Origin: Escherichia coli | GTDB lineage: Bacteria; Pseudomonadota; Gammaproteobacteria; Enterobacterales; Enterobacteriaceae | Reading direction: 5' to 3' (one strand) | NCBI RefSeq assembly: GCF_003334405.1 | Contig: NZ_QOWM01000003.1 | DNA length: 64,000 bases | Shown here: piece after piece, positions 36,561-36,980 of the stretch | Layout of the letters: the number at the start of each line of letters is the position of its first letter | Position numbering within the stretch: the first letter of the stretch is position 1 | The notes under the pieces: model-generated | Seen by the model: only the letters and a program-made list of their open reading frames with translations | Databases searched by the model: none | What the model was told of the DNA's origin: nothing | Translations under genes and position numbers: made by a program

Positions 36561-36980
36561 TTGCTGTTGTTCAATGTATTGGCGGATGACGGATATTGGC
36601 GCACCTCCGCAGCTACTGGCAAAATAGCCAGGACTCCACAAAACGCCTTTGTAGTAATACCTGAATGCAATATCTGGTCGATCTCGTCGCAGTCACCTAC
36701 CCGATACGCCTTTGAGGCTGTTTACCAGACTGGATATCGCCAGTTTGGGAGGATAGTTAATTAACAAATGGACGTGATCTGGTTCGCCATCCATTTCAAC
36801 CAGTTCAGCTTCAAAATCAGCACATACATTTGAAAAGTAAGTGCGTAGTTTTTCTGTCGCGTCATGGTCAAAAATCTGGCGTCGGTATCTGGTGACAAAG
36901 AGCAGGTGAACATGCATCAGGAAAACACAATGCCTTCCACGCCGGATATCGGTTTCTTTTTTCACAGACCAAAGTATCAT
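36561..36980 (-). pseudogene. tnpA: IS200-type Y1 (HuH) transposase TnpA with in-frame TGA before the catalytic-Tyr region
   Basis: N-terminal part ...PDHVHLLINYPPKLAISSLVNSLKGVSGR ends at TGA (36693-36695); same frame continues LRRDRPDIAFRYYYKGVLWSPGYFASSCGGAPISVIRQYIEQQ. Confidence 0.7.

Follow-up and report, generated by a model that had tools for sequence, protein, structure and literature searches.

Introduction

The mechanistic model of the IS200/IS605 family is IS608 of Helicobacter pylori. Its transposase TnpA is a dimer with hybrid active sites, each made of the HUH motif of one monomer and Y127 of the other; Y127 is the catalytic residue, lies on helix alphaD and acts in trans with the HUH motif (PMC3597680). 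In the IS200/IS605 family, subterminal hairpins are recognised by TnpA (PMC3201880). Derivatives of the family that carry tnpB only depend, as a general pattern, on TnpA supplied in trans (PMC9956272). In Escherichia coli K-12, the transposase of the family member IS609 was described as containing a stop codon and as giving no transposition (data not shown; Umenhoffer et al. 2010, PMC2891674). The K-12 gene is annotated as pseudogene yncK (b4578) in MG1655, and RefSeq marks tnpA of BW2952 as a pseudogene ("internal stop"); yncK is also called insP. A dead tnpA of IS609 is thus already annotated and published for K-12, and the finding reported below is correct and, as such, ordinary.

The DNA analysed here (the window) is a 64-kb stretch from a close, phylogroup-A-like relative of K-12, not from K-12 itself. 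Over 6001 bases the window and MG1655 differ at 4 positions, of which none falls in tnpA and the one at 37926 is synonymous in insQ; over 4 kb the window is 100% identical to many natural isolates. The original prediction, made from the letters of the window, held that an IS609-like tnpA is interrupted by one in-frame TGA upstream of the catalytic tyrosine region and that the element is therefore non-autonomous. In the present analysis the stop, its position relative to the HUH motif and the tyrosine, its population frequency and the alternative alleles were determined; the catalytic roles of the HUH motif and of the tyrosine, and the non-transposition in K-12, are taken from the literature.

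Results

IS609 between ydcL and ydcO

An element of 1748 bp with divergent tnpA and tnpB genes was delimited at 36492–38239 (plus strand) by means of an empty site and of the MG1655 annotation, in which the same 1748 bp are the feature "insertion sequence:IS609". The empty site, in E. coli genome L003, reads ...GCGCTTTTTAT|TATCGGTTT... (junction ...TTTTTAT|TATCGG...), and the element sits exactly at the bar, without target duplication. The copy annotated as IS609 in O157 is 97.8% identical to the window element. On its boundaries and its near-identity to the reference element, the window element is assigned to IS609, of the IS200/IS605 family; it is without terminal inverted repeats and has subterminal hairpins at both ends. 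By single-stranded DNA fold prediction these are CCCCATCC-TTCA-GGGCGGGG on the left (36508–36527, plus strand) and CCACGTCC-TTCA-GGGCGTGG on the right (38210–38229, plus strand). The tetranucleotide TTAT (36488–36491, plus strand) adjoins the left end on its 5' side and is the target, as well as the putative left cleavage site and TnpB TAM; TTAT was found 5' of the IS609 left end at four different loci. The right end terminates in TCAA (38236–38239, plus strand), the putative right cleavage site.

IS609 is flanked by the convergent genes ydcL (35788–36456, plus strand) and ydcO (minus strand), and the T-run of the ydcL terminator (36465–36484) directly precedes it. On the other side the insertion lies inside the ydcO stop codon (38236–38241; 1049–1054 in L003). 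The stop codon of ydcO is now TGA (minus strand, 38236–38238) and comes from the TCA(A) with which the IS609 right end closes, and the protein ends in ...ADRNRY-TGA at the occupied site as against ...ADRNR-TAA at the empty one, with one extra Tyr and otherwise undamaged. That YdcO is nearly undamaged may explain why the ydcL-ydcO insertion is tolerated and widely spread. A near-full-length IS609 copy was present in 4,334 records. A tblastn-type homology search found no second Y1 transposase and no further IS609 copy in the 64-kb window.

The tnpA frame and its stop codon

The tnpA pseudogene occupies 36549–36980 on the minus strand (143 codon positions, followed by the one that is the stop codon in O157), and these coordinates match yncK of MG1655 exactly. 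Its frame begins with ATG at 36980 and runs through 95 sense codons (MILWSV...GEPDHVHLLINYPPKLAISSLVNSLKGVSGR, last residues LKGVSGR95). Minus-strand translation from 36980 bore out the predicted TGA directly after LKGVSGR, at codon 96 (36693–36695; TCA on the plus strand). The same frame then resumes as LRRDRPDIAFRYYYKGVLWSPGYFASSCGGAPISVIRQYIEQQQTPG... and continues to ...RQY135IEQQ. In the DNA alignment, codon 96 differs from that of open copies by a single base, 36694 being C here and A there (TGA versus TTA, Leu96), so that as far as the integrity of the reading frame is concerned the claim of one point mutation between this copy and an open tnpA holds. The base that follows the TGA on the coding strand is C.

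At the position of the O157 stop codon (36549–36551) the window copy has CAG in place of TAG, and the frame stays open for 25 further codons, crossing the left end before it stops at a TAA within the ydcL terminator (36474–36551, minus strand). CAG was considered as a second lesion of the window copy and rejected: it is the majority state of IS609, seen at all four loci sampled, and TAG was seen in the O157 copy only. In most IS609 copies (four loci; L010–L013) the tnpA frame thus enters the flank and acquires a site-dependent C-terminal tail, and PGAP labels such CAG-type copies of tnpA "missing C-terminus".

The distance between the starts of tnpA (ATG at 36980, minus strand) and tnpB (GTG at 36988, plus strand) is 8 bases, and the two genes are read outwards from there, so each promoter must lie within the coding sequence of the other gene. 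A consensus promoter scan picked up nothing convincing for either gene and no clear sigma-70 site (2 sites versus 1.6 expected).

Transposase family and catalytic residues

The conceptual read-through protein was compared with profiles and with intact and solved homologues. The Pfam model Y1_Tnp matched residues 18–139 over model positions 1–121 of 121 (E=1.4e-40), across the stop. The NCBIfam model transpos_IS200 (NF033573; cutoff 55) gave 142 bits for the read-through protein and 99 bits for the 95-aa fragment, and in a tblastn comparison residues 1–143, again spanning the stop, were 96.5% identical to the intact O157 IS609 TnpA. Judged by these matches, homology across the TGA is far beyond chance. 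The motif PDHVHLL was predicted to be an intact HUH motif, and it is: H69-V70-H71 (36768–36776, minus strand) aligns with DHIHIL of IS608 TnpA, H69 and H71 align with the HUH histidines of the solved structures 2a6m, 2f4f and 2ec2, and both lie upstream of the TGA. The catalytic tyrosine had been expected in the conserved block after the stop; an alignment placing it upstream would have spoken against the prediction. The alignment places it downstream, and the prediction stands as far as the block is concerned. The residue itself is Y135 in RQYIEQQ (TAC, 36576–36578, minus strand; untranslated), which aligns with Y127 of IS608 TnpA (PDB 2a6m), and not one of the YYY or GYF tyrosines of the block that had been quoted. 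The Y135 codon is 39 codons downstream of the TGA, so the tyrosine and the HUH motif are separated by the stop at codon 96 and are not on one polypeptide. According to the alignment, the TGA also removes the last core beta-strand, besides helix alphaD with the tyrosine. At the position aligned with codon 96 the solved homologues have Leu or Ile. By descent, tnpA is on this evidence a Y1 (HUH) transposase gene of the IS200/IS605 family; by function it appears as a pseudogene.

Three nonsense codons at one insertion

Thirteen copies at the orthologous ydcL-ydcO site were compared: those of the window, of K-12 and of 11 diverse isolates. Each of the 13 has one, and no more than one, of three nonsense codons. 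L96* (TGA, base 36694) was found in five, with no additional damage; Y76* (TAA, base 36753) in another five, four of which also have a 5-bp deletion; and E62* (TAA, base 36797) in three, two of which also have a 1-bp deletion. All eight copies with another stop than L96* (L004–L009, L017, L018) have Leu at codon 96. Searches with exact sequence contexts returned ~2,596 complete-genome E. coli records for L96* (59–61 nt), ~1,018 records for Y76* and ~719 for E62*, counts that are not locus-specific, as Y76* also occurs at a second locus; they sum to 4,333, close to the number of records with a near-full-length copy. The TTA version of the codon-96 context was found in ~2,300 records. On the alignment of these copies, tnpA of this one insertion has been hit by nonsense mutations at least three times independently; the TGA is one of these and is to be read as lineage-specific decay, not as a recoding or regulatory device.

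The second locus with Y76* is the DUF3251/nrdR locus of NZ_CP018206.1 (L010), where IS609 carries this same stop codon together with an unmutated left-end hairpin. This combination suggests either mobilisation in trans of an element with a dead tnpA or gene conversion between copies.

Changes in the left end and in TnpA besides the stop

A G-to-A change at 36512 was present in 13/13 ydcL-ydcO copies; G was found in 5/5 copies sampled at three other loci. The change turns the hairpin CCCCGTCC-TTCA-GGGCGGGG into the form present in the window and breaks a G:C pair beside a conserved T·G position. The predicted single-stranded fold of the left end has -10.5 kcal/mol (z = -1.3) here versus -18.0 kcal/mol (z = -4.0) in the O157 copy. 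The mismatch may thus also impair this IS609 copy in cis, and it may have immobilised the ydcL-ydcO copy before tnpA decayed. Position 36533 in the outer stem of the left end (A versus C) was considered as a further cis lesion and rejected, A being present in 3/5 copies at other loci; of the two positions, 36512 alone is confined to the ydcL-ydcO copies.

Relative to every other copy, the TGA lineage has two private missense changes in tnpA, V27L (36902) and V106F (36665), and zero private synonymous changes. Together with the hairpin mismatch, these would add further defects to the one at codon 96, and reversion of the TGA alone may not restore mobility. That the element is one reversion away from activity should consequently not be assumed, as the left-end hairpin and two residues are changed as well.

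The tnpB (insQ) gene

The tnpB gene (insQ; 36988–38196, plus strand) was identified by profile match and by its uninterrupted reading frame as an intact gene for a 402-aa RNA-guided endonuclease (NCBIfam guided_TnpB, NF040570; 379.8 bits, cutoff 100; no internal stop). The 402-codon frame is open in all 13 ydcL-ydcO copies (among them L001, L004–L009 and L014–L018), in all of which tnpA is dead. The region from the 3' end of tnpB into the right end (38123–38249, plus strand) probably contains the omega-RNA scaffold; Rfam matches there were sub-threshold only (HgcC, 22.2 bits, cutoff 50; RAGATH-18, 25.4 bits, cutoff 44.9). Among the 13 copies, variable sites made up 3.9% of tnpB and the same 3.9% of the tnpA pseudogene, and the variable codons of tnpB comprised 17 synonymous and 29 nonsynonymous ones (omega roughly 0.5–0.7). 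Constraint on tnpB looks weak. In the IS609 copy at another locus (L013) insQ is frameshifted.

Discussion

Transposition of an intact IS609 would be of the single-strand "peel and paste" type: TnpA, as a dimer on the left- and right-end hairpins, would excise single-stranded DNA by cleavage 3' of TTAT and 3' of TCAA, with Y135 forming a 5'-phosphotyrosine and the metal ion held by the HUH motif. In the window copy, a T-to-G transversion on the coding strand would have turned Leu96 (TTA) into TGA, and the product would be a 95-residue fragment that keeps the HUH motif and loses the C-terminal strand and helix alphaD with Y135. As the active site combines the HUH motif of one subunit with the tyrosine of the other, there should be no cleavage at TTAT| or TCAA| without the tyrosine. 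The copy would then neither excise nor insert by itself and would stay fixed between the convergent genes with tnpB (insQ) open. A 95-aa product without the nucleophile cannot mobilise its own copy, and the expectation that the element is non-autonomous is upheld. We put the probability that the ydcL-ydcO IS609 copy carries a tnpA pseudogene through the L96* TGA, with a product that lacks the tyrosine, and is a fixed, non-autonomous element in lineage-specific decay, at about 0.93.

Several readings would leave tnpA, or part of it, in use. A sequencing or assembly error in a gene that is really intact can practically be dismissed, and with it the proviso of the original prediction, because the exact TGA context recurs in the ~2,596 independently assembled records; in MG1655, BW2952 and W3110, which are among them, the annotation gives an internal stop or a pseudogene. 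That the in-frame stop is flanked by conserved sequence on both sides might be expected of a programmed recoding site, with TGA as a conserved selenocysteine or regulated read-through codon. Such a codon would be conserved in homologues, and codon 96 is not: it is TTA (Leu) in all other IS609 copies examined (8/13 at ydcL-ydcO and 5/5 at three other loci), other lineages have other stops, and Leu or Ile stands at the position in the solved homologues, which leaves recoding unsupported and exceedingly improbable. A further reading is low-rate read-through with Trp at codon 96, giving traces of a full-length, extended TnpA and a weakly autonomous element. In E. coli, termination is weakest at UGA when a C follows, and the RF2 allele of K-12 is a weak one; the window copy has this TGA-C context, its downstream frame is open at 96.5% identity to the intact TnpA, and the otherwise open, C-terminally extended forms of tnpA at other loci indicate that an extension as such may be tolerated. 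The read-through product would, however, carry Trp96 at a conserved Leu/Ile position, L27, F106 and the 25-residue tail, and the left end on which it would have to work is weakened; the different stops and the frameshifts of the sister lineages show that nothing preserves a read-through arrangement, and in the single test that has been published no transposition was observed (PMC2891674). We regard leaky termination as very unlikely. The 95-aa fragment might instead have a function of its own, such as repression through hairpin binding or dominant-negative pairing with intact TnpA made by other copies, and it does keep the HUH motif and its 99-bit match to transpos_IS200. Against this, its stable folding is doubtful without the last core beta-strand and alphaD, the consensus scan picked up no promoter-like site for tnpA, and no fragment is conserved, other lineages being truncated at residues 61 or 75 or frameshifted near residues 15–38; a role for the fragment is thus highly improbable. 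Supply of the tyrosine in trans by a TTG-initiated fragment downstream of the stop (36474–36641) likewise finds no support, as most of the fold would be missing from such a fragment.

A different question is why tnpA was lost, the proximate mechanism being the same. Its knock-out may have been favoured repeatedly, with tnpB/insQ and the guide RNA kept for some function. Three different nonsense codons, exactly one in each of the 13 sampled copies, next to a tnpB frame that is open in all of them, would fit such selection. So would the share of nonsense among tnpA substitutions (3/17 versus 4.5% expected; p about 0.04) and the distribution of disruptive events, 5 in tnpA versus 0 in the 2.8-times-longer tnpB (Fisher p about 0.001), both of which come from a small sample and post hoc tests. 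The per-site variation of tnpB, however, equals that of the pseudogene, its omega of roughly 0.5–0.7 points to weak constraint, its frame is broken at another locus, and recombination between IS copies, as with Y76* at a second locus, blurs the independence of the events. The shared hairpin mutation, moreover, could have immobilised the copy first, and later loss of tnpA would then have been neutral. Selected loss is unlikely. In a more specific form, the parallel L96*, Y76* and E62* at this ancient, nearly species-wide insertion would reflect repeated elimination of a transposase that was harmful or of no use after the hairpin mutation, with InsQ or its guide RNA retained (incipient domestication); this we hold to be rather doubtful. 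The published role of TnpB is transposon retention, which has nothing to act on where there is no TnpA-driven excision. The simplest account is that tnpA decayed in the ordinary way in a copy that is fixed and may be impaired in cis, and that any selection for an open insQ is mild. The ydcL-ydcO locus is a possible test case for selective maintenance of a chromosomal TnpB in E. coli; a literature search on insQ/TnpB at this locus gave nothing specific beyond PMC2891674 and PMC12781874, in the latter of which IS609 TnpB was used once as a purified candidate.

Comparison with known systems

The nearest relative is yncK of MG1655, which shares with the window copy the 1748-bp boundaries, the ydcL-ydcO locus and an identical tnpA sequence including the TGA, and differs in belonging to K-12 proper. 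The dead tnpA accounts for the view that, in chassis strains derived from K-12, this IS609 copy does no harm. The IS609 of O157 and relatives agrees with the window element in its ends, in the TTAT target and in the divergent arrangement of tnpA and tnpB. Its intact TnpA (WP_000604943.1, 143 aa), whose 96.5% amino acid identity was given above, differs in the O157 copy by Leu96 (TTA), V27, V106, K51, A131 and a TAG stop codon of its own, and the left-end hairpin of that copy is fully paired.

IS608 is more distant. Its target is TTAC as against TTAT of IS609, its tnpA and tnpB are co-oriented as against divergent in the window, and its TnpA is intact, unlike that of the window. The match between the two transposases is detectable (E=5e-19) but distant; both have the Y1/HUH fold (PDB 2a6m, 2vju), with H69/H71 corresponding to the HUH motif and Y135 to the position of Y127. 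Both elements form subterminal hairpins, end on the right in TCAA and insert 3' of a tetranucleotide (PMC3597680). In its present state the window element resembles the tnpA-less or degenerate derivatives of the family (IS1341-type elements with a solo tnpB), with which it shares an open tnpB and a missing or dead Y1 transposase; it differs from them in that its tnpA remnant is of full length and would be open but for one nonsense codon. The ydcL-ydcO locus illustrates cleanly, in a natural setting, what usually becomes of IS200/IS605 elements: tnpA decays (here three times) and tnpB persists.
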